From: an uncultured archaeon
Lineage (GTDB): Archaea > Aenigmatarchaeota > Aenigmatarchaeia > QMZP01 > QMZT01
Assembly: GCA_964347025.1 (NCBI GenBank)
Contig: CAYFWU010000003.1
Span: 8,834 to 71,851 of the forward strand
Direction of reading: 5' to 3'
Length of the DNA: 63,018 nucleotides
Shown here: positions 3,167 to 56,865 of the stretch, in pieces
Layout of the letters: every line of letters starts with the position of its first letter
Numbering within the stretch: the stretch's first letter is position 1
Translations under genes and position numbers: made by a program
Notes under the pieces: model-generated
What the model saw: the letters and a program-made list of their open reading frames with translations, nothing else
Databases searched by the model: none
Told to the model about the DNA's origin: nothing

Positions 3167-3199
3167 ACAACCACCCAACCTTCAAGACATTGATATTAT

Positions 3200-3469
3200 T
3201 TATTCGTTTGATAAAGCCTCAGCAAGCCTCTTTACGTTCCTTTCTTGCTCTTTCAGTTTATCCTCAAATTCTGAAATTTTGGAATCGATCTCATTTAACT
3301 TGGAGCTGAATTTAAACTCCCATTTCGAGTCGTCAACCTTTCCGATTTCTGGTACAAACATACTATTTGATTTTGTTTTCAGTTTATATTTAATTTTATA
3401 AATTTGATATAATAAAAAGCAAATTATAACAATCATCAAAAATATTACCAAAACCATTATCTCTAACAT
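3200..3469 (-). CDS. Small membrane-anchored coiled-coil protein (89 aa)
   Basis: ATG start. N-terminal hydrophobic helix (MLEIMVLVIFLMIVIICFLLYQIY) followed by a K/E-rich helical tail (SKISEFEDKLKEQERNVKRLAEAL). Sits 33 nt after MinD and 21 nt before the next gene on the same strand. Confidence 0.6.
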   Translation of the reverse strand: MLEIMVLVIFLMIVIICFLLYQIYKIKYKLKTKSNSMFVPEIGKVDDSKWEFKFSSKLNEIDSKISEFEDKLKEQERNVKRLAEALSNE

Positions 3470-3502
3470 AAGTATTATTTTGATTTTATTATTGAAATAT
3501 GT

Positions 3503-4279: not shown

Positions 4280-4324
4280 TCGTTTTCACTCTTTATTTTT
4301 ATTAATTTGTAATTAAATACCTTC

Positions 4325-4987: not shown

Positions 4988-5119
4988 ATTTCTACAATTA
5001 TACTATAATCACATCCGGTTTCAGGGCGTTTCCTCTTCAAGTGAACCTTAACTGTTTATTGATGTGACATTTTATTATTAGAATTTTTTATATAAATATA
5101 ATAGTATAAACATACAAAT

Positions 5120-12709: not shown

Positions 12710-15700
12710 CTATTTCTTCATCCTTGCCTTGAGCGAATCCACGTAACTCTCAGCCATGGTGAACATACCCTGCTTCATCTTATCCTTCGCCAGGTTCAAT
12801 TCGATCTCCAGATCACCTGTGTCCACCTTCCTCTTCTTCATCGCCTCTATCTCTTTATCAATCTCCTCTATCTTCTTGTTCACCTCTACGTACTTGTCGA
12901 TCTCCTTGTCCGAGAGCCTTCCCGTATCGTGAATAAGTGGACGGAAGGATATGAAGTATGGTTTACCTTCGTTGTAGGCCGGGTTCTGAACGAGGGCTGT
13001 TCCTGTCACAAGCTTGACAACCTTCGAAGCGTAATCAGTTCCGTACTTTGTCTTAACCCTGCCTATATCCCCTTCGTACTTCGTCCTCAGCTGTATCTCT
13101 GTCGCTATGTTCGCCCTTATCGCTCCCCTGAAGTCCATAAGGACCTGGGAGATCATGAACACTCCTATTCCCCACTTACGGAACTCACGGCAAGCCCTTT
13201 CTAAGGCAACATAACCGCCCTTACCTCCATACTTCGGAAGCAGCCTGTGGACCTCATCGTATACCAACAGCAATTTTATCTCCCTTTCCTCTGGAAGCGC
13301 AGCCTTGAAAACAGAGCTAACGGTCTTCCTGACGAAGTGATCTATCTGGCCTGTTTCCAACCTGTTCATAACGAATACCGTTATTTCGCCAGGTTTCCTG
13401 TACTTCTGGATGTCCACCTCCATATCAGGATCGGTAACAAGAATGATATTGGTCTTGAATGCCGTTGCGTCCTCTGGTTTAAGGCCGAACTGTGAGTAAA
13501 GATTGATCATCCTCTTGTCTCTGCATGACTTCATGAACCCTGTCCACTGCGCGGTCGGATCGAAAACTATGACAGGAACCTTCCTCTTTAACATCTCCTC
13601 TGCAACTATCATTGCCGAAACAGATTTACCTGCTCCGGTCGCTCCCGCCGCCAACGAATGCATCATTAACGCCTTGGTATCCATGTACGCCTTCACATCG
13701 GTCTCTGCTATCTTACCCACGAGAACTGTGTCAGGTCCGGCCCTCGGAAGCTTCTTGAAGTCTATCGGGAATATGTACCTCCTCTTTGCCCTCCTTCTCA
13801 CCATCCAGGTAGCATAGAGCTTTCTTCCGAAATAGAAACCTGGTATGAGAAGGAAGATCACCACATATGTTAACCAGTGAAGGAAAACTGCTCTAAGTAA
13901 AATCAGAGGAGCCGGTAAAAGGATAATATCAAAGGAATCAACCGCATACGCCGACTTCCTGCCGTCCCAGTATGTGACATTCAGTTCAACAACGTACCTG
14001 TCCTGTGGCGTACCTTGCGGAATGGGAATTGATTTCGTGAATGTCTTGATGTTCTCTATTGCCAGGGTTTCCGAATTCTTTACTATGAGATTCTCTGTTT
14101 CCAAACCCTTCACTTCGTAAGTAACAATTATGTCATCTATTTCTGCCGTTGGTCCCATGTTTAAAAGCGTGACTTCGAATTTAAGGTTACCTCCAGGTTC
14201 AACGGTCTTTGTTAAGACATTAACATTTACATCAAGCAAGGGTTCTACAGGTATCTCGACCTTTATGGTAACGGGCGTTACATGCGTGATGTTTCGGTCC
14301 CTAACATTCGAAACAATATCACCTGTGTATATGCCAGGCTGTGTCGTCGGCAAAGCGTAAAGCTTGACCTTCATAACACCCGTTGATTTTCCTCGAACTG
14401 TGAATACTGGTTTTTCAATCTGGACGAGCTCCCAGGCATTTCCTGTAACGCTTGTTTCGACCGTGATTGAACTCCCAAGGTTGTTGAGTATGTCTATCGA
14501 ATGAATTTCATGTTCCCCTGGTCTCAGCGTGACGAATATCAGGGTTGATTTAATTTCGACGGGGATCGCAGGAACTCCAGGCACTCCAGGCACACCAGGA
14601 GCCCCCACTCCTACTCCAGGTCCAACTCCAGGTGGCGCTGGTGGAGTTGGCGGTGCGGGTGGGCAATCCGTCGAACATACTGCTGTTGATTCACCGGTTA
14701 CAGTTGAACAATTTCCGTCACCACATATGTATTCAGCAAGGACGTAAGCTCCTGAAATGCTGCTTGTATTTATGCTTATGGTGGAATCGTTCAGGTTTAT
14801 AGAGCTTGGCAATCTTGTCCATGTGATATCCTCATTCGAAACGCAACCAACTCCTATCCTTGTCCAGATACTGCAGTGATAAACTCCCAGGTTACTCAGC
14901 GTGAATCCTGAAAGTTGTGAATAATCCATTGTCAGCGTCCCCATACTGGAGTTCAACACGTTGGTTATGGATATTCCCCTCAAAGCCGAACTACTAACCC
15001 AGATAGGCTCTATTTCACCAAATGTCACAGGATCAATAAGGTTAACCAACAGTGGCGTATTGATAAGATTCATAGAGTCGTTCCAGAAGTATACGTCTAT
15101 GTCGAAATTCCTGGCATCAACAGTTTGGTTATAGTAGCCAGTTCCATTGGTTGTGATGTTCGCATAGGATATGTTTGTTCCCACTTCCCACAGACTGAAC
15201 TTGACCTGTATGGGTGGTCTCGATATTTTCTCTTCGTCCCTAGCCTCTCCTGAGAAGAACACACCTGCAAACGCTTCAAACGTTGTTGTAGTTGAATTAC
15301 AGTTACCTGATTTATCGCAGGCAGTTACATTTAACGTGTGTATACCAGCAACTGTTACGTTAGTGAAGTTGTATTCAAAGAGGAAGTAGTCCCCAATTTC
15401 TGAAATCAAGGTCATGTTGAACAGTTCGGTGTAATTCGTTCTGGAAATTCGAACGGTTGCATTCTGAACAACACCTGCATCTGTCACGTTCGCCCGTATG
15501 TTCGCGGTTGAGAACATTGGAACCCTTGCTGCAACTATTATCTCTATGCTTGGTGGTTCGGAATCCGTGTATATGATAGCGTCTTGTTCGCCGTCAAAGT
15601 ATAGCAAGCTCTTGTTGGTGTAGTTCGCTGTTACGTTGATATCATAACTCTTTGCTATCGCGAAATCAGGAGCAGTGAAGTTCATCAGCCACAGGCTTTC

Positions 15701-18700
15701 GTTGGATGAGTAGGTTATGTTTGTGAGGTTCATTTCCATTGATAGGGTCTCGTTATACAATGTTAAATTCCATATCACCAGGCTCGTATTGTCCACAGGG
15801 CTCGTCCCGTATGTAAGGTTAACCTTTACCTGTATGGTGTCGTTCCAGGTTATGTTTATAACAGGGTTTGTATTCGTGGGTTCGATGATATCAACAAAGT
15901 AGGGGTGAACAGTTAGGTTAACAAAGGTCTGTTCTGTCTGCGTCCCTGATGCGGCTGTATAATTGGTTGTCTTTACATTGCCCGTGTAATAGTTCCACTG
16001 GTAGATAACAGGAGCTGTGTAATTCAGGCCTATGTACTCGTATTCACCGATATCCATCTGGAGCTGGGTCACATTCTTTTGAACCACACCAAGTATCCCG
16101 CCTTCTATTCCTGTATCGAGGACAAGGTAGATGTTACCCGTGTTATGGACCGTTATGGTTTCAAGAGGACCTGTGGTTCCCTGTATAACCTCTTTCGATA
16201 TGTTTGCAGGCGTTTGCGTCCAGGTAAGGTTTACTGGAACTATCACACTTACGTTGACAACATCGTACGTCCCCAGCCCGCTCGCATTGATCATTCCGTA
16301 ATACTTGTCGCTCGGGAAGTTGCTTTGAACGTATATCTCGATGGTCACGTATTGCGTGTCGTTTATGGGCATTGATGCTATGCTGTCAGGATAGTAGGTC
16401 ACGGTGAAGTTATCGCATACCGCCCCGGACCCTGGTGTGCAGTTGAATGATATGCTGTCGACTTGATAGTTACCTATTGACCTCAGGGTTATCGAGATAT
16501 TTTCGGATGAATCTGGTTGTATAACGATATCGCTTACGTTATCCTGAACTATGTCCAGTACAGGGTTCTGAGTGACGTTTACCTGTATGTAGGTCTGGTT
16601 GAAACCGGGGGAACCGTTAATATCTATCCAATCCGACGTTAGGTTCACATAATAAACTCCTGGTGAGGTCGAGTTCGGGATGTTTATGATGGGTTGTCCG
16701 TAACTCGATTCGTTCCTTAGTATGGTCCCGAACGCGAACGTATCCTGGGAAGCTGACCAGCTAACGGGTGTGGTTATAGAAAGGTTTACATAGTACGCTC
16801 TTGCATGGCCCGTGTTGTTCATGTCTATTCTGACCGGGATGTCCTCCCCCGCGTAAATGGTTATGTCGGTGATTTCAATGCTCGTTACATTCGGATTTAT
16901 CTCCATCGTTGTTATTCCAGCAGCCAGAAGATCTCCGTAAAGATAACACCCAGATTTGCTTCGGGTATCGTTTGCGCATATATGAAGCGTATGGATCCCC
17001 GAGATGTTGGAGGAGTAGTTCACGCTGTAATAGGAATCGTTCTTAACCATGTAATCCTTGAATGGGCTCTCAACCTTGGCATAGTAATGGAGCCATGAAT
17101 AGTATGCAGAACTTATCTGCGATCCGTTGACATCATGAACGGTCAGGTTTATGTTCTGGTCTCCAGGAAGCGTGAAACTCGTTCCGTTCTGGACGGCATC
17201 AGCCGTGAAGTTCGCTCCTGGGGTTACGGACTGGTTTATCACGATCAAGTTTTCGTTCACGGTGATGTTTATGTAAACTGTCGAGGCCTCATCGTTGTTG
17301 AATGTTACGTTGAAGTATTGCATCTCTCCCTCGAAATTAACATATTCCGTGTGATTGTATCCTGATTCGTTACCTACTGACTGGCGGATCAATTTCGAGA
17401 TACTGGTGTAGTTTATATCTCCGGGTCTCATTACCCGTATCCAGGCCTTGTCAACCGCGAAATTATCCGTTATTTTCGCAGAGATTGAAACGTTCTCGAA
17501 GATTATTTCGAATATGTCCGGCGTTACGCTAACATCCTCTATTACCGGAGGAATATCCGTTACGTTCAGCCAGAAGTCCACGTAATCCTCGTCAGGATCC
17601 GCAGGCAACGTTGTATTTATTACCCATAGCTTTACGTAGAACAATCCCTCGGTGGCTCCACCACCAACACTGTAGTTAACATAGATATTTTGTTTGTCTC
17701 CCTTCTCTACATCCAGGGCCGGAGGCGAATAAACAACAAGTCCTGTTCCATTCCCCTGTAATGCTATGTCAAACACCATCTTAACGTTACCTATGTTGGT
17801 TACGTTTATCACCCCAACCTCACCATCCATGTTCGGAGGTGTTAAGAAGGTTCCGAATGTCCTCGAAACAGGTTCTATCAGCCAGCTTGAGTTCAGGGGA
17901 ATGCTTATATTCATCAAGGCCAGGTCCTCTCCGCCAAGGACGGCTGCTGCCTTTATGTATGCCCAGTAGTCACCCGGTTCCTGTCCACTTGGGATGTCCA
18001 TGTAAATATCCACTGTTAAGTTTTCGGTGGGTCTCAAAATACCCTGGGTTTCAGGTATGAAAGTCACGTTGCATTCAGGACATTTCGTTTGCAGATTGCT
18101 CCCTATACCAGAGGTTAAACTCATTGTTATATCTCTTACCCAGTCGTTTCCTATTGAAAGGACGGTTACGTTTCCTATGTAAAAATTCTGGCTGTCGTGC
18201 GGGACATTGTCGTTGATTAATTGCGATTCAAAGATGTCCAGTATAGGATTTGAGGTGACCTTGATATCTGTCGTATTAGTTGTCCAGTTCCACGCCTGAT
18301 CAGGATCCATCCATGATGCATTCCCTATCAAATGGATAAGTTGAGGTGTTGTCGCTTCTGGGACGGTAATCTCGAAATGCCAGACGCATTTCGTAGTGTT
18401 AGACATGTTTCCGCAGTCATGGTAATGCAGTGTCTGATTGAATATTATGATTCCTCCGGCATCATCATACGCCGAGATGTTTACGAAGTACGCGCGGGGC
18501 GGACCAAGGTTGGTGAAGTTTATGTACATGTCTGTCGTGTAGTTAAGAGTCTGGGTTATATTGGAGGCTATGATTTCAGGGGTTTGCTCCATTGCATAGT
18601 TTATCTTACCCCACACCGTGAAATTACCTGCGTACGAATAATTCGCATTATACTCAGGACTCTCATCCCGAGCGTAAACTGTCACGTCATATACGCCCCC

Positions 18701-21700
18701 TATGGGCGGGTAGTAGGAAACCCTGTACGTATCGTTGTATATATTCGACATGGTCTCATTGGTATACGTACCATTGGGAAGCTGTATGTAGGCCCATACA
18801 AGGTCAACTTGGTAATCATCCGTAACGTTCGCCGTTATATTGGTGTAGTTAGCAACAGCCTCTATTCCGTCTGTCGGGTATATAGAGGTCCCAATTATTT
18901 GGGGCGGTTCCGTATCCTTTATGTGGATCAGGGCAATGGCCTCGTCTATACGTGCGCTGTAAAGTTGCGTGGCGTTATCCGTTATGTTGCATTTGAAGGT
19001 CATGTCTCCCTTATCTTCCGGATACCATGTAAAGAAAACATATCCAGTCGAGTTCGTGCTCTTGCTGCCGTTGTAAACGTATCCGCTGCCGTTGTCGTAA
19101 TAGAAGTTAACCTGGTAATCGCTTATGCCTGCTCCCGATTCCCCATCGACCACCCTGCAGGTGTTGTTGAATGGGAAGGGATAGGAAACGTTGGATTCGT
19201 CCGGAGGACTTATCCATACAACATCGGCCAGACCTGATATCTCTATAATCACGCTATCCTGTCCCATGTCATAGCTCGGTTTAGTGGCTTTAGCCGTGAT
19301 ATTCCGGAAGCCTGTTTGCTGACTACCAAGGTATATATCAGTGGTTTCGCCTTCCGGAGCTATCTCTATGCCCGATTCATTGTACCATCTAACCTCCAGG
19401 TTACCTCCAGTTATGTTGTTGTTATTTTCATCCCAGACATCGGCATGTGATCCACTTATCGTATCATCCTTGTCCCATTGACTTCCGTTCAGAGGATAGG
19501 TAATGTTGGCGTAGAGGGCCCCCTTGATAGTCAAAGTGGTTGTGTTTGTTTCGGAATCTTCAGAACCAAGTTTTGTTGCATTGATGTAAATGTTATGGAC
19601 GTCCGCTTGTATATCATCAGGCGGGTTGTATAATATCTCTGTGTTACCACTGGAATCTGTTGTGTTGTAACCTATGTAGCCATAGGTTGAGTTGTAGAAG
19701 CTGACATTCGCTCCTTCGGCACTCCCAAGCAACGCTTCTTTTACGTGGACGCTTATGGTTGAGTTGTAATAATATGATCTGTTAATTGCAAATGTGTCGT
19801 TCCTGTAGATTATCGTTGGGTCTCTGTTTATAACATCTATGAAGAGCTGCCTCTTTATCCTTATCATCGTATATCTTTCCGGGACTGATGTATTGTAGTA
19901 AAGTGTTTTATCATCCGTTATGTTACACGTTATATTATACCAGCTAGCGTTCTCTGGCGAGCCTCCTCCAGTCACCCATGTCCATCTAGCCCTTCCGTTA
20001 AGGGTTGCATTCGAAAGATCGTAGTCCTGATAGGTTCCGTTCTTGTAGAAAGTCACGTTGTATCCCTCTATTGGTTGTCCTGTGTTCGCATCCGTTACAT
20101 AGCAGTCCACCTGAATTGTAGAACCTGCCTGATATTCGGTTCCGGATACCGGTTGTATATCGCTTATCTCGCTCCATCCGTATACATAGACAGTCGAATA
20201 GTTTGTATTTCCGTCGTAATTGGTTCTTGTCGCATTCACGTATGTAAGGTTTGGACCAAGCGGATAATTGTAGGGAACACTCCAGTTTGTGTCGTAACCT
20301 GAAGTGAGGTTAACCCAGCTACCGTTGTACCAGACAACAGAAGAATCATTCACAAAGTTCCCACACTCGTCCTTCACAGTTGCATTGAAATAAGTCGTTG
20401 TGTTCCTGTTGATAATGGTTCCATTTACGGGATTTACAATGGTTATGTTTAGCTGCCCTATTATGGTAAAGCTTCTGTTGGAAGGACTTGTGAAGTTTTC
20501 ATATTCGTAGCACGTATCATTCGTTCCTCCGAACCAATATTGTGTCCCCACGGTTGACCCACATCCGGGATCAGAGAAGTTCTCGCAGTAACCATTGGAT
20601 GATATACAGGAATACGTACGGCTGAAGTTCGTCCCGTTCTCTGTTACCCACATCCATCCCTTCGCACCATCAGGCCATCTGGGGTAGTCATCATCCCTTA
20701 TCCTGAACCTCATCATTTCCTCTTCGTTCCCGAACCTTCTGATGGACGAATTGCTGAATATGTAGGAAACGGTCACATTGTCCTCTGTTAACGTGAAGTT
20801 TTTCACTTCCGTTTCATCAGTGTAGTTGAACGGATCAGTAACGTTGAACTTGTAGTAGTTCAATCTCCCTGGTGTCTGATTCGAATCCGAACAAGCGAAT
20901 CTTTCATAGATGTACACATCCGTTCCTGCAGAACTCTTGGTTTCGTTGTGTACAAGAGTCCAGCTAACATTATCAAAACTCTTCCAAAGCGAGATGTTAT
21001 CCTCGTTCCAGTCTGCATCTCCGAAATAAACATGGAAGGTATACTGCCTCCCCCAGCCATCCAGCACAGGAGTTACCCACGGATTTGATAGATACGGGGC
21101 ATTACCAATGTTGAATGCATCTACTTCTGTCGTCTCATTCAAAACGTAGTAACTCCTGTATACCCTCATTATTATGTTCCAGTCACCCTTTTTCTGTCCA
21201 CTGCTATCCCAGCTGCAGTTGTACCACCCCCCTCCTTCCTGCCAGTTCCCTGTACAGTAACGTATGGTCGCACCGTTCTGCAGCCTGTATTCCTGAGGAC
21301 TTCCTCCGTGGTATCCTAACGTTGCTGAATCCACGCCATAACCCAAATTATCTGAACAATCGTCCTCAAGATATCCGCTCACGTTTACGAGATCACCCTG
21401 CAGGTACCCTACCCTACCCACGGGATAGTATACGTAAGGTCTGAGGTCTGAATGTACTTCTACTTCGTATATTGAAGAGTTTACATCGAAGTAACAGGAG
21501 TCGTTGAATATTCCACCTGTCCAGTTGTGTGTGCCTATCGTGTAATTACATTCACCAACTGGCGGAGCATCAAGGAAATAATAGTTCGTATAACCGCTGC
21601 TGTTCACACTTGATATGCTTCCCGGATCCCAGGAATTCGGATCAGATGCATTCGTGGTTACCCAGAACATCGTATTACCAGAGCCTAACGTTTGATTTGT

Positions 21701-24700
21701 GTCGTTGTCTATCATCTCCAGGCTGAGGAGAACAGAGTACGTTCCGTTCCTCCAGACCCATGAGTTTTGATGTCCCAGATAAGGCTCTACCCTGACATTA
21801 TCCCTCTCTATGCTGAAGTTGTGGGCCTGCGTACCAACCTGGTATGTATGCGTATCTGTTGCATTAAAGCTGTAACTCCAGTTACCTATCGCTGTACAAC
21901 CTATTGATTCGAAGCTTGTGTTAAGATAAATGGTCTGGTTTATCGGACCTTCCAGGGTTATTTCATTATCCTTCTTCCAGTCCTGATACTGGAAAGGACA
22001 ACCACCCCCTGATTCTACATTCAGACATTTTATGTACAACTCGATAGTCACGTTATCCAGATCTTCATCCGTTACCCTCACAGAGAAATTCCTCATTTCT
22101 CCCCATCCTGCCGGATCCTTCAGATTAGTTTCATTCTCAAGGACAGGCTTGGTTTTGATGAAGAAATGATTCGTAACGTTGGTTGAATTGGGGTTATACA
22201 GGTACTTCGAGGAGTTCATCCTTGTGTGATACCACCTTGCTTTCATTGCAGTTGTCGTTCTGTTACATTCGTAAAATCCATCCGATGGATGCTTGTAGAC
22301 CGTGCAGTTGAACACAAAACTGCTGTTTTCATTTATGAATTCTATCGAAACATTCCCGTCGTTTATGAAGTCTCCTTCACAATCACTCTCGAGATAAACC
22401 TGCTGCGTTATGTTATCTACACCTCTCAAGAACTCTTCTCCCATCTGAGGCGACGGGCTGACAGTGTAGATGGTTTGATGGAGATCCCCGTATATCTTGA
22501 GTATAAGGTTTACCGAGAGGTTCACGTTCTGGTAACAGCTATCGGTAACCCCGGCCTTCCAGGACTGGTTACCAACAGTATACTGTGGAGAGCATCCCGG
22601 GTTGAACGAGTAGTTGGCATGTCCGGTTGTGTTGGTCTTTGTGATATTTCCATAGTCCCAGCTGCTCGGGTCAGAAGAGTTCGTTGTTACCCAGAATGTA
22701 ACGTTCGTGTTGACTGCGATGGATTCGTTTCTATCCGTGTCATTGACCTGCACTATTAGCAAGGTTATGTCGTTTTTGGATCTGTTGACTTCCGAAAGGT
22801 TACCAAATGTGTATCCGATTTCTATACTGTCCACTGTTATGTTGGGACCACTCTGATTGGTGGTGTTCAACGTATTGGTCCCGTCATCCAGTTCGAACAT
22901 AAAGAAGTTCGTTGTTACATCTCCGATATCGTTGCAGTTGAAATCGGTAACAAGCAAACTGCATGTATCCTGTCCTCCGTAGACAGTTGTTGAATTCTTC
23001 ATAACCCACGCTCCACCATAGTTGTTGGTCCTCACCCACAGGTTACAGGTGACATTGTCTTCTTGTGGATCCGATATATCAACGCTGTAGTTGTACACGA
23101 CACCCCAGCCGTCCTCTCCCGGAGTAACAGAAAGGCCGCTGTAACCTGGCGGGGTGTTGTTCAGGTAGATGTAATCAGTCAGAACAGTTACGTTGTCGTT
23201 GTAGTCTGGCGTTTTCTCCACAGTCATCCTTACAGTGTAATTCCCTCCCTTATGGCCAAACGTAATCCATGTACAGTTATACCATCCCGTTCCTTCGTCG
23301 TTTACAGTCCCGTTCTCCGTGCAGTTCTCCCATCCATCAGGACCATTCAATTCGAGCATAACCAGGGAAAGGCCTGTCTGGTAACTTTCGTTTATCCCGA
23401 TTCCACTGCAGTCTGTCGGAACGCCGAATCTGAAGGTTACGTTATCACCTACAGGGATGTTTGAAGCATATGTCTGGTTGGGTTCTGTCAGGTTTGTTTT
23501 TAACTGTCCTACAATGGTTATTGGAAGTGCTTCTGTGTTGTACGGTGAAGCAGCTGAAGCCCCTCCCTTGTAACACGTATCATTGTAATACGCACCTGAT
23601 CTCCAGTACTGGTTTCCCACACCATACGAGCAATTCGGATTGAACGTGTACCTCAGATAACCGGAATTATCGGTCTGATTCACATAAGCCAAGATGTAAA
23701 CATTTGGCTGGGAGGCGTTTGTTGTTGTCCAGAATCCTCCCCAGATCCCTCCCTCCACAGTCACAGAACCCCTGTCTTCATCGGTTATGTATATTTCAAA
23801 CAATTCCGTATCATCGAAATCCCTGTCTACCGAAACCCCGTAACCAGAAGATGGAACACCCAATGAATCATCCTTTTCGAGTGTGAAATTCGCAGCAGAA
23901 CTGTTGGTGTAATTCCAGACATCTATGGATGTGAAGTTGAATTGCTTCTGGCTTGAAGACTGATTCTGGAGATCGGAACAATTGAACTGGTGGTTTCTGA
24001 ACCTGACAAGTCCGGTCTGTTCGTTCAAGGATTCATTTATCTTGCTCCAATTCCCGGTCAGATTTACGTAAAGTGAGACGTTGTTGTAATCATCATCAAG
24101 ATCGTAGAGATCTGCCCGGAACTCCCACAGCTCTCCCCATCCTCCCTGCGATCCCCCTCCACCGGATCTTATTGCCTGAAGACCTGTGAAGTACGGGCCT
24201 GTTGCAAGGTAGAACTGCTTGCTCTCGTTCCCTGTCAATGATGTTCCGTTGTAGTATTTTTTCGTGGCATTCATACTCACGTTATACCATGACCCCGGAC
24301 TCCATCCACTGTGTCTGTTCGGGGTGACATTACACTGATATATTCCATTCCCTAGATACGGAGAACATCCAACCAGCGGACACCTTTCATTTTCCTGGGT
24401 CACGTTGAAAACGATGCACGCCCCGCTGACCTGACCACAGCCGTCGGATTCCGTGATATTGGCTGTTGACGTTATGTTATCCACGCCCCTAAGGTAGTGA
24501 TCGTCTGAAAGCCACATGGTTGCATTGAGGGGTGTGGTTGAAACCTTCCATGAAACATTCGTTGAGTTCGTATCCTTATACTCACTTTCATCAACCACAC
24601 CTGCTGTCCACCACTGTGGTCCAACGTCGAATGTACAATCAATATCGTCATCAAGTTCAGAAGATAGGAATGTTAGGTTACCACCTTCTGCCGTATACTT

Positions 24701-45700: not shown

Positions 45701-48700
45701 GGTATAGGATATGTTGTATTCTGGATTTGCTGATCTCTTCTTCCACCCCCCTGAGGTGAGGTCGAATGTCAAATGGCTTTCATCTGTGTAGTTCATTGTT
45801 CTGACTTGGTGGGCTGGGGTCTCGGTTATGTTTCTGCTGCCCCATGTAAGGTTATACCAAAACATTCCTGTCTGGCCAGTATCCAGATCAGAGAGAACCT
45901 TATAAGCTGCGATTTTGTACATGTTGGCAGCTATGTCGCCAAGATCACTTGCAGACCATCTGACCTCCCTTTCAGGTACGTCCACCTCTCCGGCTGTCAC
46001 GCCATCCAGAGTTGGAGCATAAGCCACCCAACCGGTTGGCAGCTTTTCGGTAAGATAGATATTTGTGGCTAAAGCACAACCCTTGTTGTGAATAACAAGA
46101 CGAGAAGCGAAGTCCGTGTTGTTCCCAACTTCTCCTGGAGTCTCCCTGATTATCTCCAAAACCGGGATGGAGTCACCGGCTTCTATGGTGTAATTCGCTT
46201 CCCTGTATTTATCCAGATTATCGGGATAGGTGTAATTGACGCTTGCATTTATCACGAAATTTTGGCTAGTCCCTGCCTCTGCGGTAAGGTTAAAGCTTGC
46301 GACATAATCACCGGGCTCGCTGGCGTTTATAAGAACGTAATCAGGTTCTAACACCCAAGAGCTTGGGACCTCAAGGGTTACGTTGTACTGCAAATCATCC
46401 GTGAATGGATGAGAAACCGTGACGTTAAACTGCTCGGTCGTTGCGTTGCACATGTAAGGTTGGCCTTTTGCTGAAACAGGAACCGTTTTGAATATGAAAT
46501 CTTCCTCCCTTTCCACTGGTTCGCTGATATTACCGTTAACATATGATCCTATCTGATAGTCATCTTCTGACCAGGTGGAAGTATTGATGCTGGTGAAATT
46601 AACCAGTATGGTTTCGTTATTTGGAAGTGTAATGTCAGTCTGCGTGCTGCTGTTGACGACGTAACCGGTGGAGTTGGTGATGTTTAAAGTCACGTTAATC
46701 GAGTAAGAGATGTTAAGGGTGTTTGCTATCTTTACCGTCACGTTGAACAAACCGTCTCCCGACTCCATCCCATATGTCTCCACCCCATTTTTCTTTGGCA
46801 CGATATCCTGAACCAGAACCACGGGTCTGTAATAAGCCTCTAAGAAAAGAGAGTCCACCATAAGGTTGTATGTATCCATGTTCTCGATTTTTATTTGGCA
46901 GTATCCGCTGCCGTTAGCTGCTATCTGATCCTCGAGTATGGCGATCTTCGTCCTTTCTGCAGTGTCGTTGACGTATTTTCTCAGAATCTCATTCCAACCC
47001 GTTCGGTTTAAAGCGTAAACCCTTGCAGACGTATTCCCTCCATTTGATTCCCAGTGGACCGTTAAATTCGCAACCCTGTAGATTCCGGCTTCGCAGGCCC
47101 ATGAAGCAATTAATTCCTTCTCACTGCTTATTTCAGCTTCTACTGTATTATCATCCAAGCTCTCCCCAACGGTCACATTGGTGACATTAACTTTACTTAA
47201 AGCACCTTCCGAATAGGTATCATTTTTAACTGTTGCATACTTCGGGGTTGAGGCCGGCGAAACTTTGTAAGCAATCAATATTTGGGAATCGTTATAATCG
47301 GAGTTGTCCTCTTCATTTTCCCCTGTAACGTTCACAGTGAAGTTTGAATACGAGTTGGGCAGAATTGTCCATGTCACTTTCTTCACTTCTTCCCATCCCA
47401 GATCCCCTACCTGTTGGGTAACAGACGGCCATATCTGCCAGCCTGAGGGAACCACAAGGCTGAGATTTATTCCTGTTGAAGAACCCGCCGTGCTATTTAC
47501 GGTCGCGTTCACCGTAAAGTTCATGCCCTGGAAAACCTCTTCAGGAGCGAGAACTTCCGTTACATTAGGAACACCAATTCCCGAAAGCTCAAAGGCCGGA
47601 TCCTTAAGGTGAGTGCCGTTCCAATAATAACTGACATTCGATGCGTTCATCTCCACAGAGCAGTTAAGGTTGTATTCAACAACCTCAATTGAATCCCACG
47701 TGCAGTTATAGGTCCCGTTCCCGAGGTCGGTTATTGCGGAAGTGCAATCGTAGGAGTAATCGCCGCATGTTATGTTAAAGAAAACGTTTGCACCTGTGAT
47801 GTAGTTATTGCAGTCATCAAGCAAATCTCCGATAATCGGAATTACGTCTCCTATCTGGTATGATGTGTAAGGCATCGTGACATTCGGCTCCAGATCTCCG
47901 TAAACCGTTACATTATAGATCGATTGACTCTGAACATCATCCTTGAAATAATCGTAGGCATCGTCAAGGGTATAGGCAAACCAAGTCTGGTTACCAACGT
48001 CGTATAATGGATCGCAGCCTGGGTCAAAACTTAGATTGGAATAACCAGCTGAACCAGTCAAAACCACCATCTGATCAGTTCCGCTGTCCTTATGATAGTT
48101 GGTGTAATTCGTCCCGTTCACGGTCACGTTAAAGTAGATGTTTTCCTGAATCGATGAAGATGCATATTGACCGCGATCAGTGTCAAAGACGTCAACCCAG
48201 AGGGGAACTGTCTGGCTCCCGGACCTGTTCACGGAAACGTCCCTCGGCGTGTCTTTCCTCTCAGGGGCCTCGCAGAAAATGGTTAAATTCTCCACGTGTT
48301 TTACATATCCAGAAATGTCGTTTTGCGTTACATTCGATGTTATGTTGATTACGTATGCATCCTCGCTAGGACACATGATCCTCATCTTGAATGTCAGATA
48401 GGCCTTCGCCAAAGATGTGTTAAATTCATAACCATCTATCATATCATTTACACAATTGACGCAGGCATATTGCCAATAAAGTTCTGTGTATGTTCCATTG
48501 GTGGTGGCATGGTGTGTAACGTTTTGGTTTCCCCTGCCATGGGCCTCGATTGTCCCTGGTATGACCCAGCCCGCTGGTATGGTGATGTTTGTCCTGAAGG
48601 ACGTTACCTCACCAAAGCTTGAGGATTCCGTGAACACCCACATCGGAAGAAGGACATCAACAACCTGCGTCCTGTTCGCCTTCCGGTCCTCATAGGACCA

Positions 48701-51700
48701 CCAGTCATGCGGAGACGCGCAGTAATCAGAATCCTCCGCATTGAGCAGGCTGTCACCCTGATCCAAATCAATTCTCCATGCGACTCCTTCACCGTTGTTG
48801 GGAACGATTCCTGAAGGATAGTTCACGGTATAAAGAGTAGTACTGTCGTTAAGCCAGATAGTGGCGTTCTGTCTGCATTGTCCTAATGTTTTTTCGTTGT
48901 TGTTACCAACATCGTAGAGAAGTGCCCAGTACAGCTCGAACTCATGAGGTTGGATTATGGTGGTGTTTTCGCTCCCTCCGGCCGGGGTCCCCCAGTTAAG
49001 CTGATACCAGTATTGGTTGTCCGTGTTAACTGTAGGGGACGTAAATTTCTCGTAGTAGGCGTCAACGGTAGGCGTATCCAGCAAATCTGTATCCTCTGCG
49101 GGATAATGCCACATATACCTCACGCCGGTGACGTTAATCGGTTTATCCCCCCAGTTATAAACGATCACATGTTTGTATTCCCCTGTGGGGCAGTTTGTAT
49201 TCCTTTCGCCCTCCCTTGAATGGGACTCGACAAAGGCCTTTGTTTCATCAGGATGGTAGCGGGTTCCGAGAACGATGTCGTCCTTTTCCAGGTCAAGCCT
49301 GCCATCTACAGCAGGTCCGGGATACACCGTACTCTCGGCTTTGCCGTCTGCTGTCTGCGAAGCGTTTACCCTAAAATACCATAGGTTATAACTGTCGTAT
49401 TCTGTTGATGAGAATTCACGATAGAATTCCACTTTTTCATTGCTGGGTGTTCCTATAGCTCTACATTCTCTGATTTCCCAATTCCCTCCGCTGTATTTTT
49501 CCTGAAGACATATGGTGACATCCGCGGTATGGGTAACGTATGTTCTAACCGTGAAATTCTCTCCCCAGCCACCCTTTCCGGTAGAGCCGTCATTTGGTAT
49601 AATGATTGAATTATTGAGGATCACCGGCGGTGTTACGGAAAGATAATCCTCTTCTGTCACCTCATCATCCAAATAACATGTCTTGTTTGAGTACATGGTC
49701 ACGTTGTAATTCCCGCCTACTTTGCCAGCCGAATCCCAATCGCAGGTGTATGAGCCATTGCCAAGATCAGTGGTGCTGTTACACCAGTAGATATTAATGC
49801 CGTTTTCATTGGTAAGTTTGAATTTAACAGTCGCTCCTGCGATGAAATTGAAACAATCGTCTACCACATTACCTGTCAGGTTTGCGTATCTTTCTTCTGT
49901 CTCAGAATAATCACCACTGCCACCCGTTATTTCGTTGGCCAAATCGTCCACCATCTTAACGACAAACTCGTCGGACTGATTGGGTTTATAGCAGGTTCCT
50001 CCCGTTGTGTTTACCTTCCATTTATGCTCACAGCTGGTCACGTTGACCTGATAATTGCAGTCTGGGGTGAAGGTGTAATTCCAAAATCCGTCATCTGAGT
50101 CGGTTGTAGTTTCCAGAATGTAGTCACCATCTGCCTTCACATAAAACCTTCCTGATGTCGTTGTTATTGATGACTGATTGTCTGTGTCATTCCCATAAGT
50201 GGACAGGGCTGTTGAGTTATACTGGCTTAGTGGATAGGTAAAATTCCTTAAATTCAATACCGTATTGTTCCCGACTGCATGCTGGATTATGATGCTATCT
50301 CCCTCCAAATTAAAAGATTCTATTGTCGTTTCGCTTTTAGTCCCAACACTGTCAGTTGCGTTGAATTTATACTGAATGGTTCCGACCTCGCTGCAGGTGT
50401 ATTGCCTTGTCCAATTAAATTCCGTTTTATTGCAGGTTGTGCAATTGTAGTTTGTAGGCGATATCTCTGTCCATTCTCCACTACTCACCTTCTCCCAGAA
50501 GTGAATATAAACAGTATCATTCGTAACATCGGTTACGTTTACAAAGAAGGTAAACGATTGAGCTCCCCAACTTCCTGACGCCGGTTCAACCTTATAATCT
50601 TCAAGTACTGGCGGATTTTCCAAGAAGAAAGTGTCGGGTTCGTATTTGTAGGAGGTGACATTGTAATAGTACTGTTTCCTTGAGAAGACCGATACATTAT
50701 ACCAGCCTGCAGGGGCATCTGCAGAATTCCAGGTACACTCGTAAACGTTTGCTCCCAGCTTCGTTATAGACGTGCATGATGTGTTGAAGTTCCAAAAGTC
50801 GTTTGTTAAGTTAAACCATATGTCGCCTTGGTCAATTTCAATAGCCTCCTCGCAATAGTTTTCGACAATCGCCTGGAAAAATACCCCCTCCCCTGAAGTG
50901 TAGTTTACACTACCATCCGGCTTTTGTATAGTGTTGTTTAAAATTCCTGTCACGTTGAAGTCGTAATCCTCTGATTGCGCATCCGCACAAAGGTTCGGGT
51001 CTTGATTTGTTGTAATTATAACGTACCAGTTGTGCGGACCCACCTCATATTCCTCGTCAATAGTAGGTGTGCTAGCGTTGTCGCATGTTGCAGTGAAGTT
51101 ATACGTAACAATCCCGGAAGCATTGGTTGTCAGAGAATGACCGGAATCCCATGTCGCTCCCGATCCGGTTCCCACTTTCGTTATGTACATTGTAACGCTT
51201 TCTCCAGCTCCAACAGGACCCCCAGCTCCGTATTCTATCTTCACCCAGACATCTGTCCAGTTGATCTGGTCCAAAGCAGAATCATTCACGTAATCGAAAT
51301 TTATCCCGCGGATCCGGATGTCTCTGTTGCTTGTCTGCGTCCCGTTCCACCCGCCCATTATTGACTGATCTGTCGTGTTCAGGCTGTAGACACCTGCGCC
51401 AGAAACATTAACAGTGAAGTTGCCCACATGTATCCATGCAGAGCCGTTGTAGATTTCGAGTTGCAGGGTATTGTTGTTATTTCCCCTTGCCACAGAACCT
51501 GAATTGTTGTAATAGGAGACGTTAACGGTTACGTTGATTAAGGATATGTTGTCCAGTTCTTGGCTGGTCACATCCTGGTATGTAGTCCAGGAGGTTGTCG
51601 ATTCATTATCTCCACCCCCCTCACCTGTAACATTTATCTCATCGGTGAATATGTACTCGCCGTTGTAAGTGGCGTCCTGCCAAATCCTTATATAAACACT

Positions 51701-54700
51701 TGAATTATCCTCCACACAACTGTCTATTGCAGACAAATTGGTATTATAGGACTGACTGAACCCCGTGGCGGGATTAATGTCCACTACTTCAACCCACGTG
51801 GCTCCTTCATTGCAGGTAAATTCTAAAGAAAGTTGTTCATTGGGAGATTCATAAGTATCAGCACAATCACTGAAAACCCATGAGATATTTATGTTCGTGT
51901 ACCCTGTTGTATCCACGCTGTGATTTACACCAGTACAATATCCAGGATCACATTGGTGTCCACCAGCGCCCCCGTCACCTCCTACTGTCTGCATGTAATA
52001 AGTATCACTACACAGTGTAGTGCAGCCTGTGCTCACAATTGAGGCTATTTCGTCCGCACCCCTGTCAGTCCAGTTTATCCAGGCTGAAGCATCGTTGTTG
52101 TTTACCCCTGAACAGCTTCCGCAGCTAAAATCTCCGGATTCAAAACCATCATAGAATATAACGGTCCTTCCAGTACTTCCTTGCGCCTTTTTCTGGATTT
52201 CCCCGGTTTCCTGATCGTCCGTGGTCAGTGAATTGCTCTTGTATTTGACAAGGACGGAAAGCGTGAGGTTGGTTTTATCTGCAGACCTGTTCGTGTTTTC
52301 GTCATCACCCGAAATGACTTCATAGGTGTAGTTCAGATCAGGATTGCAGGGCAGGGACAGCTGAACAGGCACGAATGTTTTCCTGTCCATTGCGAGAGGT
52401 GCGCTGTACATGCTGTAGGGGCTTTTGGTGACCGTTAAGGTGAACTGGGAGAAGGTTTGATTACCTGTGTATTCGTATAAAGCGTAGGTAACAGCCTGCT
52501 GGGGGATGGTCCCGTCAGCTGACGTGTTGATTTCAAAGACCGTGTCGCCGTTGATATCGGTCAGCTTGACAGTCGCGTTCCCCACGGGATTCGCTCCGTA
52601 TTTGACCGTTACGTCAAGCGCGTACTTTCGGAAGAACGTCCCGTTGTCAGCGTACCAGTTAAAATTCCAGGTATCGGATATAATGTTAATGGTAGTTCCG
52701 TTTGAAGATCCTGCTGAAAACCCGTAGCCATCTTCTATATTTATTTTCTTCTCTGTTGTTTGGTTTATAGCGGATCCGTTGATGATCAGATCAACGTAAG
52801 ACGTATACGTCCCACAATCATCGCTCACTGTAAAGACATCTGTTAAATATTCTTCGCCCTTTGTATAGTTTACCTGTATTGCCTGCATGTAGTCGTATAT
52901 CTGGCTAACGTTCTTGGTTTCGTTAACAATTATCTCTCCGCTGTGGAAGTAAACCGGAGTGACGTTCGTTGTCTCGTAACCGTCAATAAAGAAGACAGAT
53001 CCATTGTCATAGTAGACTGTATAATCATCTTTATTCACGACTCCCAGCGGAGTAAGCGTGGTGGAATCCATGCCTTCCACGTTGAGTATTTGGAAGTGTT
53101 CTGACTGTGTTACAGGTGTTCCTAATAGCTGGATCATGTCATCCGTTCCCACATCACCAGCCTCGCTAAAGTTACTGAATTCATGTTGAGTTGGTGGGTT
53201 GTAAGTTATTCCTGTCTGGGCTTCTGCCTCTGATTGCGTGTAATTCGTACACCATGTACATGGATGGGCATACAAAACAGTGTCCAACGCTATCGGGCTT
53301 GTCAGCTCCATGAGCGCTTCGGAGAACTTGTATCCGTACTTCCTGTAGTAGAATTCATGTGGAGTGTAATTGGCCTGCGGCTGGCTGACGTCTGAAATTA
53401 TCTGCAGTCTTTTGAAACTAAGGATCTGTTCTGCTATTGTTCCGTTAGAGTACGAGGAGACGTTGAAAACAAGCCTGCCCTGAAGATCCCTCGCAGCGAC
53501 TGTTACACTCCCTAGGTCATTGTTTGCGGTATCCTTAATACCCAGGTTGAAAGAACTCTGTCTGAGTATGTAGTTGTCGCTGGCGCTACCACCACCGCAG
53601 CCGTTATAATCTATGTTACCTTCGTCAAAAGTCGAATCTATCGCTATGAGATAATGCCCTGTACCCATTCGAATGTCATCGGTGTTATCGTAACCTGAGT
53701 AACCTCTGACTGAACCATGCGCATAACATATCCTTATTCCAGCTTCTGCATCGTGGATGAGTAGGTTGGTGAACGGTTTCGGGGGCTCACCACTCATCTC
53801 CATTCCGTACCTTCCGTTGTAGAAAGCATAGTCATTCATGGTTGTATTTGCCGGAACGTAGAGTATGCCATAGCTTCCGCTCTTTGCGTATCGTTGGAAC
53901 GTAAACCTGTTTATTGTGACACTTGCGGTGCTATACCCACCGCCAGGCTCGTTGTCCATGGAGCCCGGAGAGCCTGCATCAATGTTGTTTCTAAGGGTGG
54001 TGTATATGATTTTGTAAGTGGTATCAAAGAACCGCAGTTCCCCACCATTATCAGCGTCATTGTAATCATCATATGCACACATGGCTGCCTGGTCGCAGAG
54101 CTCGGTAGCGACATTACTTTCTATGTAAGACCCCTGTTCTGGCTGGCCCGAAGCTGTTTCCTGGCCGAAAATCAGATGTCCGTTTTCCAAAACCTGCCAG
54201 TTGTAGTTCATCCTTATAATATCGTTCGTCGACTTGAGCCAGCTGACGGCGTCGGTGGCGTTACCAACTCTCAACAGTTCATCGAAAATGAAGTAGTTCC
54301 CATATTGAGTTACACCTCCGCTACACATGACCGCTACATCTTCTATGGTGTAAGGCGAGGCCTCCGTTCCCTCGGTAACCGTTATCGTTCCTCCAGTGGT
54401 GTTGGTGCCGCAAGTTATCGAGTGCCTGTGTTCCGGGTCGTACTCGAAGATTACTTCCTCCTTGGCAATTTTCATGTCTTTGATTTTTTTTAATAAATTT
54501 TTCCCATCGAATTTTTTGTCGGCGATGTAGGTATACGTTCCACCGTGGGTGAACAGGCTGTCTTTCATCTCGGTGTCGGAAGAGAGGTAGAAGACTGTTG
54601 GGAGATTGAATTCGTCCCTCTGCATGTTGAACCTGTCGAGCCTGACCCTGGACCCTTCCTCGGTATATATGTTGTTCATAACGCCTTGGTGGAACACCCT

Positions 54701-56269: not shown

Positions 56270-56289
56270 AGAAAACTGGACCCGCACCC

Positions 56290-56296
56290 TTTATAA
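56290..56296 (-). promoter_or_regulatory. TATA box (TTATAAA on the minus strand) for the giant gene
   Basis: Its centre lies ~26 nt upstream of the ATG at 56269, the archaeal TATA-to-TSS spacing. This implies a leaderless mRNA. Confidence 0.5.
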
Positions 56297-56303
56297 CAAG
56301 TCA

Positions 56304-56319
56304 TGTACATTAATGTACA
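56304..56319. promoter_or_regulatory. Perfect 16-bp palindrome TGTACATTAATGTACA just upstream of the giant gene's TATA box
   Basis: Reverse complement checked base by base and found identical. Sits 7 nt from the TATA box on the BRE side, so it is a candidate operator for a dimeric HTH protein. Confidence 0.55.
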
Positions 56320-56383
56320 ACACAATTAGTATACATAACTGTCGAAGTATATATAGCGTAATTTGTTAACGGTTATAGAAAGA

Positions 56384-56390
56384 TTTAAAT
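56384..56390 (+). promoter_or_regulatory. TATA box (TTTAAAT) for the divergent wHTH gene
   Basis: Its centre lies 26 nt upstream of the ATG at 56413 (leaderless geometry). The same TTTAAAT(A) core occurs upstream of the tRNA and in the duplicated promoter cassettes. Confidence 0.5.
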
Positions 56391-56404
56391 TGTCGATCGA
56401 CAAT
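56389..56404. promoter_or_regulatory. Perfect 16-bp palindrome ATTGTCGATCGACAAT between the TATA box and the start of the wHTH gene
   Basis: Reverse complement checked and found identical. It overlaps the 3' edge of the TATA box and the predicted TSS, the classic position for an archaeal (auto)repressor operator. Confidence 0.55.
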
Positions 56405-56412
56405 ATAATGAT

Positions 56413-56865
56413 ATGTTCAGATTCCTCAGGGACCGGAAAGTCGGAAAGGGGAAGAAAGATTATTTTCACGAACTCAGCATAATCGCCAGGGAGGAACGCG
56501 AAAAAATTCTTAGAGAGAGAATAAGGGAAATCGTTTCAGAGGAATTGAAAAACTCTGGAATTAACAAACGAATTGACGACATTTCTAAGTATTCGAGATC
56601 TATTGACAAAAAGCTCGAAGAACTGAAAAATTCGCTCGTCCCATTGAGTCGGTCGAAATCCGACACTATAAGAAAAATTAAGATGAAGCGGATGATAATA
56701 GAACTTCTCACAAAGCACAAGCGGTTGACCTCATCCGAGCTCAGCAATTACCTTAATCTTTCCCGTACGAGGTGCAGCGAATACCTGACGGAATTGGAAA
56801 GGGAAATGGTTGCCAAAGGTGTTGTGATCTCCAGACAGAAGTTTTACGAGCTTACAAACCAGTGA
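56413..56865 (+). CDS. Small transcription-regulator-like protein: N-terminal coiled coil plus C-terminal wHTH (150 aa)
   Basis: ATG start. The C-terminal KRMIIELLTKHKRLTSSELSNYLNLSRTRCSEYLTELEREMVAKGVVISRQKFYEL is wHTH-like. Divergent from the giant gene. Confidence 0.75.
   Translation: MFRFLRDRKVGKGKKDYFHELSIIAREEREKILRERIREIVSEELKNSGINKRIDDISKYSRSIDKKLEELKNSLVPLSRSKSDTIRKIKMKRMIIELLTKHKRLTSSELSNYLNLSRTRCSEYLTELEREMVAKGVVISRQKFYELTNQ

Follow-up and report, generated by a model that had tools for sequence, protein, structure and literature searches.

The DNA analysed here (63,018 nt, referred to as the window) comes from an uncultured archaeon of the Aenigmatarchaeota (GenBank assembly GCA_964347025.1, contig CAYFWU010000003.1, positions 8,834 to 71,851) and is dominated by a single giant gene on the minus strand. 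This gene is an uninterrupted open reading frame (ORF), 12710..56287, of 14,525 codons starting with a GTG, the sole stop codon (12710-12712) being at its end. In the other frames over the same 43.6 kb the longest ORF encodes 301 amino acids (aa), and the GC content is uniform (0.44-0.47). Codon 7 is an ATG (position 56269), which is kept in three assemblies, whereas the GTG is not, and a TATA-like sequence, TTATAAA (56290-56296), is found about 24 nt upstream of this ATG. Because of the conservation of the ATG and the presence of this box, the product is probably a protein of 14,519 aa and 1.63 MDa that starts at 56269. Residues are numbered below from the GTG, and all features of the giant gene are on the minus strand.

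As judged without reads, we confirmed that the gene is real and not an artefact of the assembly. Its internal DNA repeats are at most 85% identical over 100-300 nt, and 25-75% identical as protein, and are therefore too diverged to have been collapsed during assembly. Over its last ~3,800 aa, the protein is collinear with the closest independent assembly (L001), the amino acid identity being about 77%. The 5' end, with the winged-helix and first hydrophobic helix described below, is reproduced in frame in ten metagenome loci, the ORFs of which (up to 3,458 aa) run off the fetched DNA. Synteny with relatives is observed on both sides of the gene.

The C-terminal end of the protein is a conserved base module. 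As indicated by alignments, by an AlphaFold2 (AF2) model and by homology to the SPEARE proteins discussed below, this module begins with a Pro/Gly-rich linker (14570-14662) and two membrane-adjacent beta-sandwiches (13925-14560; 13925..14662 for the whole). It continues with a transmembrane (TM) helix (helix 2, aa 14126-14153, 13829..13912), recognized both by hydropathy and in the AF2 model and predicted to be the C-terminal membrane anchor, and with the sequence RRRAKRR (aa 14164-14170, 13778-13798) on the cytoplasmic side of this helix. The core of a P-loop ATPase of the HerA clade, predicted to be cytoplasmic, begins about 30 aa past the TM helix (aa 14187-14449, 12941..13729) and comprises the Walker A motif GATGAGKS (13622-13645) and the Walker B motif LLLVYDEVH (13247-13273). 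The protein ends with a helical hairpin or coiled coil (aa 14460-14525, 12713..12910; helices 631-695 of the AF2 base model), which is conserved in SPEARE.

The assignment of the ATPase was consistent between methods. Its Pfam matches were above the cut-offs for DUF87/HerA (38 bits, cut-off 23) and HerA_C (32 bits, cut-off 22), the two Walker motifs and about 45 further positions were invariant in 57 sequences, and HerA was the best match in a sequence search of the PDB (E 7.6e-8). AF2 modelling of the last 696 aa, with 57 homologues, yielded a predicted local distance difference test score (pLDDT) of 84 and a structure in which two sandwiches precede a long TM helix, with the RecA-like core behind it and a hairpin at the C-terminus. 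When this base model was submitted to Foldseek, the top match was the HerA hexameric translocase 4d2i (E 1.5e-13), with 9x1l/m also among the matches and a target-normalised TM-score of 0.54 for SIR2-HerA (8woc). The protein resembles the translocases of the FtsK-HerA superfamily (Sulfolobus HerA 4d2i, Thermococcus kodakarensis HerA-NurA 9x1l, SIR2-HerA 8woc) by its RecA-like core with Walker A and B motifs, for which these enzymes are the best matches in both sequence and structure. It differs from them in that it lacks the N-terminal HAS-barrel domain and a NurA, SIR2 or DUF4297 partner. It is not HerA proper, as the NCBIfam HerA models scored 22-27 bits, compared with cut-offs of 800-970, and CedD was also far below its cut-off. 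No NurA was found in Pfam scans of the proteins of the window, and no second DUF87 protein is encoded in the window. The position of the core directly behind a TM helix is an arrangement more like that of FtsK or of the coupling proteins VirD4/TrwB.

Only two segments of the giant protein exceed a Kyte-Doolittle hydropathy of 1.6. These are helix 2 and, near the N-terminus, helix 1, and both have flanking charges that follow the positive-inside rule. The ectodomain between them contains 922 N-glycosylation sequons, as compared to 264 ± 14 expected from composition-preserving shuffles, with none in the N-terminal winged-helix domain or in the ATPase part, and 229 of the 232 cysteines. Its pI is 4.3, that of the cytoplasmic C-terminal part 9.6 and that of the winged-helix domain 9.3. 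These findings support the conclusion that the giant protein is a Sec-type exported, heavily N-glycosylated, beta-rich surface protein. Pfam matches in the ectodomain were weak (Big_1, Big_7, DUF11, NPCBM_assoc), and a sequence search of the PDB with the whole ectodomain, in three pieces, gave no match.

Four regions can be distinguished in the ectodomain. Helix 1 is followed by a low-complexity, N-x-T-rich segment (aa 117-270, 55478..55939), presumably a glycosylated spacer, within which the contigs of relatives often break. Next comes a distal 'tip' of about 1,300 aa (aa 271-1613, 51449..55477), hypervariable between close relatives. It contains one CarboxypepD_reg-like beta-sandwich (aa ~1190-1325) and gave no significant Pfam or PDB sequence match. 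A homologue search with aa 400-1000 of the tip returned one match, and an exhaustive search of 1.84 billion cluster representatives found only 248. Most of these matched one CarboxypepD_reg-like domain of ~120 aa, and there was no sign of an enzyme among them. We dropped the use of an alignment of the relatives' tips as a profile to search the PDB, as these regions (15-28% identity) are not homologous. The third and largest region is a rod (aa 1614-12389, 19121..51448), in which an iterative hidden Markov model detected about 28 diverged repeats of ~325 aa, each made of three tandem Ig/FN3-like beta-sandwiches. The array is interrupted by a second type of module and contains an internal duplication of 7.19 kb. 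An AF2 model of the rod repeat, with the internal repeats as alignment, was all-beta, with tandem sandwiches (pLDDT 86), and Foldseek matched it best to 6xi3, which contains the extender repeats of a large adhesion protein, and to the Ig domains of titin. Finally, a membrane-proximal stalk of about 1,500 aa (aa 12390-13868, 14684..19120) has domains that are common to a neighbouring 1,994-aa protein and to the SPEARE protein of Candidatus Nanohaloarchaeum antarcticus.

The rod recalls the giant Ig-repeat adhesins of bacteria (the 6xi3 extender region, Embp, a 7,651-aa adhesin of Mobiluncus) and titin, which are also long rods of tandem ~100-aa beta-sandwiches. There is, however, no sequence homology with these proteins, and they do not have a TM helix fused to an ATPase. 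Bacterial giant adhesins are anchored by type-I secretion retention modules or by sortase.

Much of this layout had been anticipated in the original prediction, which was made from the sequence of the window. The stop-free minus-strand ORF of 43.6 kb and 14,525 codons was there, as were the beta-rich, N-X-S/T-dense and Cys-containing ectodomain between two TM helices, the second helix followed by RRRAKRR (which we place at aa ~14126-14153) and the C-terminal HerA-type P-loop ATPase, and all of these were upheld by the data above. The AF2 and Foldseek runs that it had proposed, applied to the rod repeat and to the C-terminal base, gave an Ig-like rod and a HerA-like ATPase.

The same prediction did not recognize the combination of domains as that of any described family. 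This novelty did not hold, except for the N-terminal fusion described below, which alone appears to be undescribed, as a fibre followed by a TM helix, an ATPase and a coiled coil is the published architecture of the SPEARE proteins of DPANN archaea. In Nanohaloarchaeota, these proteins were described as reaching 8,553 aa, most of which lies outside the cytoplasm; the TM helix is situated near the C-terminus, and the intracellular region is conserved. Similar sequences were noted in Woesearchaeota, Aenigmarchaeota and Micrarchaeota, an Aenigmarchaeota protein being included in a supporting table (Hamm et al. 2019, PMC6642349). Their architecture was later re-read as a Sec signal, about 75 Ig-like domains, a TM helix, a VirB4/TraG-like ATPase and a coiled coil (Reva et al. 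2023, PMC10266531). Published members are NAR1_1133 of Ca. Nanohaloarchaeum antarcticus (5,998 aa), the protein of Ca. Nanopetramus SG9 (8,553 aa) and SVXNc_0300 of Ca. Nanohalococcus occultus (9,409 aa), the last one reported as the largest protein in cultivated archaea (PMC6642349; PMC10266531). Short versions of 655-717 aa are also found in the literature.

A BLASTP comparison with the SPEARE protein of Ca. Nha. antarcticus, the sequence of which was taken from text obtained by optical character recognition of supporting Fig. S18 and is slightly noisy, showed 35% identity over 629 aa (E 1e-101). This alignment extended from the two sandwiches through the TM helix and the ATPase to the coiled coil, and a second, weaker match was observed in the membrane-proximal ectodomain. 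Due to this homology of the base, to the matching architecture and to the Aenigmarchaeota homologue listed by Hamm et al., we consider it likely that the giant protein is a member of the SPEARE family from the Aenigmatarchaeota, and thus from the DPANN archaea. This is the best explanation for the whole of the data. By prediction, the protein has the homologous ATPase region, the single TM helix near the C-terminus, the long Ig-like ectodomain and the C-terminal coiled coil of the family, and it lacks laminin-G. The order of parts is shared (export signal, giant Ig-rich ectodomain, two membrane-proximal beta-sandwiches, single TM helix, P-loop ATPase, coiled coil), the intracellular part is in both cases the most conserved one and the ectodomain variable, and short (~650-730 aa) and giant versions coexist in the family.

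There are also differences with the nanohaloarchaeal proteins. The protein described here has a winged helix ahead of its signal anchor, its rod is built from a 325-aa three-domain repeat and it is not halophile-acidic in the same manner. Neither a laminin-G, beta-propeller, protease-like or toxin-like region was detected in it; for the protease and toxin domains reported for SPEARE, this was the outcome of the Pfam scans of the giant protein. Compared with the SPEARE literature that we found, the new elements are the size of 14,519 aa (versus 9,409), the winged helix fused to a signal anchor and the operon with coiled-coil proteins, a 1,994-aa glycoprotein and MinD.

The giant protein is the longest SPEARE member that we found described, about 55% above the longest published one. 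The claim that it is among the largest prokaryotic proteins was not supported. It does exceed the largest published archaeal examples that we found (the 9,409-aa protein and halomucin, ~9,000 aa), but a metagenomic survey reported proteins from bacteria with lengths of up to 85,804 aa and some archaeal ones of more than 10,000 aa, mostly from Asgard archaea (West-Roberts et al. 2023, bioRxiv 10.1101/2023.11.21.568195). For an archaeon whose genome measures ~1 Mb, a length of 14,519 aa is remarkable, without being a prokaryotic record. The 'Archaeovorins' of Omnitrophota and other metagenomic giants are comparable in that they are encoded by genes of more than 30 kb in ultra-small, host-dependent or predatory organisms and are mostly extracellular. 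In contrast with the protein described here, these giants come from bacteria, have lengths of up to 85,804 aa and contain many enzymatic domains, and they show neither homology to it nor a C-terminal HerA module.

The search for the same architecture in related genomes, another of the checks proposed at the outset, was productive. A pattern scan for the base module in one genome per GTDB species identified at least 551 loci, the best 80 of which were examined with flanks of 10 kb. These 80 loci were mostly from Aenigmatarchaeota, a few being labelled Micrarchaeota, Woesearchaeota, Nanoarchaeia or Nanohalarchaeota. In nearly all judgeable loci the ORF was open up to the limit of the 10-kb flank or to the end of the contig, which, for a full flank, corresponds to about 4,000 aa or more, and the 325-aa repeat filled the upstream part of the related loci. 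In protein databases, no hit with the base module was longer than 763 aa among the 120 matches listed, while nearly all the genome loci had ORFs of at least 4,000 aa. Giant members appear in these databases solely as contig-end fragments, and surveys at the protein level will badly undercount the giant family. Short complete members (~725 aa) also exist, in line with the 655-717 aa of the published short versions. They carry this base behind an ordinary signal peptide, a Cys-rich knot and a linker.

The closest relatives of both ends of the giant protein are from metagenome-assembled genomes of Aenigmatarchaeota (79-87% identity), and conservation is uneven along the sequence. The base is 70-88% identical in relatives in which the rod is 40-50% identical, and the tip cannot be aligned past aa ~370 among relatives in which the winged helix and helix 1 are 70-87% identical. 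A conserved base with a variable tip is the pattern expected of a recognition molecule under diversifying selection or cassette exchange. Among these relatives (loci L086-L095), only the first ~370 aa of the protein are shared, save for L090, in which aa 642-1248 match with 53% identity. An exchange of cassettes is suggested by this pattern.

At its N-terminus, the giant protein begins with a predicted winged-helix-turn-helix (wHTH) DNA-binding domain (aa 7-75, 56063..56269), basic and free of sequons. The N-terminal ~70 aa gave sub-threshold matches to the wHTH profiles HTH_11 (E 2e-4), HTH_IclR (E 5e-4) and ArsR-type (E 4e-5). A K/R-rich linker (56000-56062) and helix 1 (aa 97-116, 55940..55999), a signal anchor or uncleaved signal peptide by its Kyte-Doolittle hydropathy, come next. 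The fusion of the wHTH to helix 1 is kept in frame in 12 other assemblies (the ten metagenome loci plus P0121 and P0122), with 69-87% conservation. More distant wHTH homologues (51-60% identity) are stand-alone genes of 71-98 aa, and one relative of the tip starts with a plain signal anchor, without a wHTH. By these sequence comparisons, the wHTH head is a lineage-specific fusion of a small, once separate regulator gene to an export signal. The original prediction had located helix 1 exactly, and the wHTH that it had recognized ahead of this helix was confirmed by the weak profile matches and by the conserved in-frame fusion. Its proposal that both termini are cytoplasmic agrees, at least at the time of synthesis, with the predictions drawn from charge, pI and sequon distribution.

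It had also been stated that the ectodomain must form a loop or hairpin, and this is where our analysis departs from it: such a loop is possible but not required. Helix 1 ends with a signal-peptidase-like site, ITA|QN (55934-55948), within the conserved motif AAIITAQN, and the signal peptides of the short ~725-aa family members end with ...YAQ|N/G, i.e. with the same pattern of a small residue followed by A and Q. Moreover, proteomics of SPEARE found the ectodomain and the TM/cytoplasmic parts in different size fractions (PMC6642349). In view of these three elements, cleavage to a simple C-terminally anchored fibre is at least as likely as a loop, and we lean towards a signal peptidase cutting after ITA116, which would free the tip.

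We considered the possibility that the protein remains uncleaved and tethered at both ends, with the wHTH inside, 14,000 aa outside and the ATPase inside. In that case, the ectodomain would describe a giant loop or hairpin, and the wHTH would be a head that binds DNA from the membrane in the manner of ToxR. ToxR/CadC-type proteins are membrane-tethered wHTH regulators with a single TM helix, and the N-terminus (to which the analogy is limited) resembles them by its cytoplasmic wHTH, one TM helix and extracytoplasmic domain, though here the latter is a 14,000-aa fibre that may be cleaved off. The positive-inside charges at both helices and the basic, sequon-free nature of the wHTH fit with this topology. 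The in-frame conservation of the fusion in 12 other assemblies indicates that it is under selection, the conserved ATG and the TATA box put the wHTH at the start of the transcript, and no Shine-Dalgarno-like sequence directly precedes Met90. Yet helix 1 closes with a canonical small-x-small site similar to that of cleavable signal peptides in the short members, and the hypervariable, presumably host-binding region directly follows this helix, so that a loop would press the tip against the symbiont's own membrane. One tip relative does without the wHTH, and the proteomics of SPEARE indicates processing, though on the C-terminal side. On balance, tethering at both ends appears rather unlikely. 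An internal start at Met90, which would make the wHTH a separate product, was also judged unlikely, as no stop separates the two parts, no Shine-Dalgarno sequence is nearby and one relative has a Val at this position.

The giant gene is the first of a series of six genes with the same orientation (minus strand). Downstream of it, after 59 nt, lies a gene for a 517-aa coiled-coil protein without TM helix (11097..12650), which is overlapped by 8 nt by the gene of a 1,994-aa type-I membrane glycoprotein (5120..11104). The latter is predicted to have a signal peptide, a Pro-rich linker and an NPCBM_assoc domain, as well as a TM helix and a tail that forms a coiled coil in the cytoplasm; it contains 128 sequons and shares domains with the membrane-proximal region of the giant protein and with SPEARE. 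It is followed by genes for a 220-aa conserved protein without a family assignment (4325..4987), an archaeal-type MinD ATPase (3503..4279; TIGR01969 minD_arch, 231.8 bits for a cut-off of 201.75) and an 852-aa coiled-coil protein with weak SMC/ASRP-like matches (620..3178). The 517-aa protein is encoded directly downstream in 78 of the 80 related loci, full-length homologues of the 1,994-aa protein (35-71% identity) are present in 72, and MinD is found within the 10-kb flank in 33. The cytoplasmic tail of the 1,994-aa protein (5120-5340), the 517-aa protein (11097-12650) and the C-terminus of the giant protein (12713-12960) share the short motif S-x-[KE]-E-[YFI]-[ED]-x-x-K-x-x-N-x-x-K-[LI], which precedes a coiled coil. 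Pfam matches of this motif were all sub-threshold (SHOCT_2, E 0.03; GvpG, ~0.01-0.02; CdvA-like, 0.0014). It may be a common docking motif.

Upstream of the giant gene lies a divergent promoter region (56288..56412), about 84% conserved across three assemblies, which contains, besides the TATA-like box, two perfect palindromes, TGTACATTAATGTACA (56304-56319) and TTGTCGATCGACAA (56390-56403). Both are candidate operators, possibly for one of two wHTH proteins, the fused head or the product of the divergent gene. The latter encodes a 150-aa HTH_24 regulator (56413..56865, plus strand), is syntenic in relatives and was present wherever the upstream flank was inspected (L084, L085). On three contigs with P0126 (L081-L083), a different cluster begins with a stand-alone homologue of the wHTH (88 aa). 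It also includes genes for three unknown proteins, for a 775-aa surface protein of CarboxypepD_reg/Big_1 type and for a MinD/ParA-like ATPase, which is 37% identical to the MinD of the window. The association of a wHTH, MinD and a surface protein recurs here without the giant gene. Farther away, a 449-aa protein (60192-61541, plus strand) has a signal-like helix at its N-terminus, a second hydrophobic segment (aa 307-332) and a weak match to DUF11. It is likely another envelope protein, and is encoded beside housekeeping genes for triosephosphate isomerase (TIM), a HIT protein and fructose-1,6-bisphosphatase. The flanking genes of archaeal type include a class-V fructose-1,6-bisphosphate aldolase/phosphatase, an archaeal TIM and the archaeal MinD. 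Scans of the window for tRNAs and with Rfam found nothing.

We propose the following model, which is built on sequence features and structure predictions. At the level of sequence and models, the polypeptide is made with its basic wHTH in the cytoplasm, helix 1 acting as a Sec signal anchor. About 14,000 aa with the 922 sequons are exported until helix 2 stops the transfer, leaving the HerA-clade ATPase and the helical hairpin in the cytoplasm. The exported part comprises the glycosylated spacer, the hypervariable ~1,300-aa tip, the rod of about 28 x 325 aa and the conserved membrane-proximal stalk; assuming ~4 nm per Ig domain, we estimate that the fully extended fibre would measure a few hundred nm. 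As in other ATPases of the HerA/FtsK type, copies of the cytoplasmic domain probably assemble into a hexameric ring beneath the membrane, which would bundle six fibres. The variable tip would bind the envelope of the host cell, and the ATPase would power the movement of a macromolecule (DNA or protein) or the remodelling of a complex at the contact site. A scaffold for the assembly, and its positioning, would be provided by the co-transcribed coiled-coil proteins, by the 1,994-aa glycoprotein with its shared stalk domains and by MinD. Through the palindromes of its own promoter, the wHTH may link transcription to the making or export of the fibre.

A bolder version of this model may be formulated, though we regard it as speculative and more probably wrong than right. 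The six co-oriented genes (620-56287) would encode an undescribed host-contact organelle, near-universal in Aenigmatarchaeota, with a hexameric HerA-type motor, six half-micron glycosylated fibres, a coiled-coil scaffold and positioning by MinD. The wHTH-TM head, released or tethered depending on export or host contact, would exert a feedback on the palindromes of its own promoter, and the uncleaved fibre would be a double-tethered loop of 14,000 aa.

Several observations weigh against the interpretation of the giant protein as a SPEARE-type host-contact device. Laminin-G, stated to be common to all SPEARE ectodomains (PMC6642349), gave no match in Pfam scans, either with chunks of 1,000 aa at E<=1e-3 or with the tip and the stalk at E<=0.5. 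As it is also unlisted in the 2023 re-analysis of SVXNc_0300, we treated it as descriptive, not defining. In the nanohaloarchaeal operon a second VirB4/TraG ATPase is encoded downstream of the giant gene (PMC10266531), unlike here, where the downstream genes encode coiled-coil proteins, the 1,994-aa glycoprotein and MinD. The window contains no further component of secretion systems or pili, and with one TM helix per protomer there is no obvious pore. The score of T4SS-DNA_transf was 21.4 bits (cut-off 20.1), with no single stretch being significant, and that of TraD 19.8 bits (cut-off 366). Since the HerA matches beat those to VirB4/TraG and no other secretion component is present in the window, the idea of a type IV secretion 'straw' put forward by Reva et al. 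is not specifically supported here. The lengths of the homologues are lower bounds, set by the 10-kb flanks, and the protein databases offer only fragments of up to 763 aa. In a 1.1-Mb long-read contig of Aenigmarchaeota (L006, positions 1-12100), the orthologue of the giant gene is broken up into four or more consecutive ORFs on the same strand (212, 660, 2,094 and 1,087 aa), which may be due to a homopolymer indel error, or to a pseudogene or real decay. Lastly, adhesion, hexamer formation, signal-peptide cleavage and the nature of the transported substrate are steps that we infer.

An alternative to a role in host interaction is that the protein is a structural, S-layer-like component of the symbiont's own envelope, the ATPase, MinD and the coiled-coil proteins serving its own assembly, its polar positioning or cell division. 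The near-universal presence and synteny of the gene and its operon in Aenigmatarchaeota would befit a housekeeping envelope system. The layout of the 1,994-aa glycoprotein (signal peptide, beta-domains, coiled coil, TM helix) is typical of archaeal S-layer anchors, an archaeal MinD is present and the Foldseek matches of the Ig repeat also include S-layer proteins. Against this, the contrast between a hypervariable tip and a conserved base is the signature of a recognition molecule, and a rod of 14,000 aa far exceeds the thickness of an S-layer. Furthermore, no S-layer protein is known to be fused to a HerA-type ATPase. This alternative therefore appears quite improbable. Hardly credible is the last one, an artefact in which repeats were collapsed or wrongly joined during short-read assembly, or a pseudogene in decay that is still open by chance: the gene is indeed rich in repeats, the contigs of relatives frequently end inside it and the L006 orthologue is split, but 14,525 stop-free codons face at most 301 aa in the other frames, the repeats have diverged too much for a collapse, both ends and the last ~3,800 aa recur in independent assemblies with the same synteny, the composition is uniform and the catalytic motifs are conserved.

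How DPANN archaea recognize, hold and exploit their hosts is an open question, for which the SPEARE proteins are the main molecular candidates. The function of the protein described here, host adhesion combined with ATP-driven translocation, is one that we infer. Our findings indicate that the family is not a nanohaloarchaeal oddity, but a core, syntenic and very large investment of Aenigmatarchaeota, in which the giant gene alone would occupy about 4-5% of a ~1-Mb genome, as estimated from the size of the relatives' contigs. They also reveal a clear modular logic, in which the motor base is conserved, the rod is built from repeats and the tip is hypervariable. Two testable handles are now available, the DNA-binding head fused to the export signal, with its candidate operators, and the MinD/coiled-coil operon, which possibly explains how the apparatus is placed.

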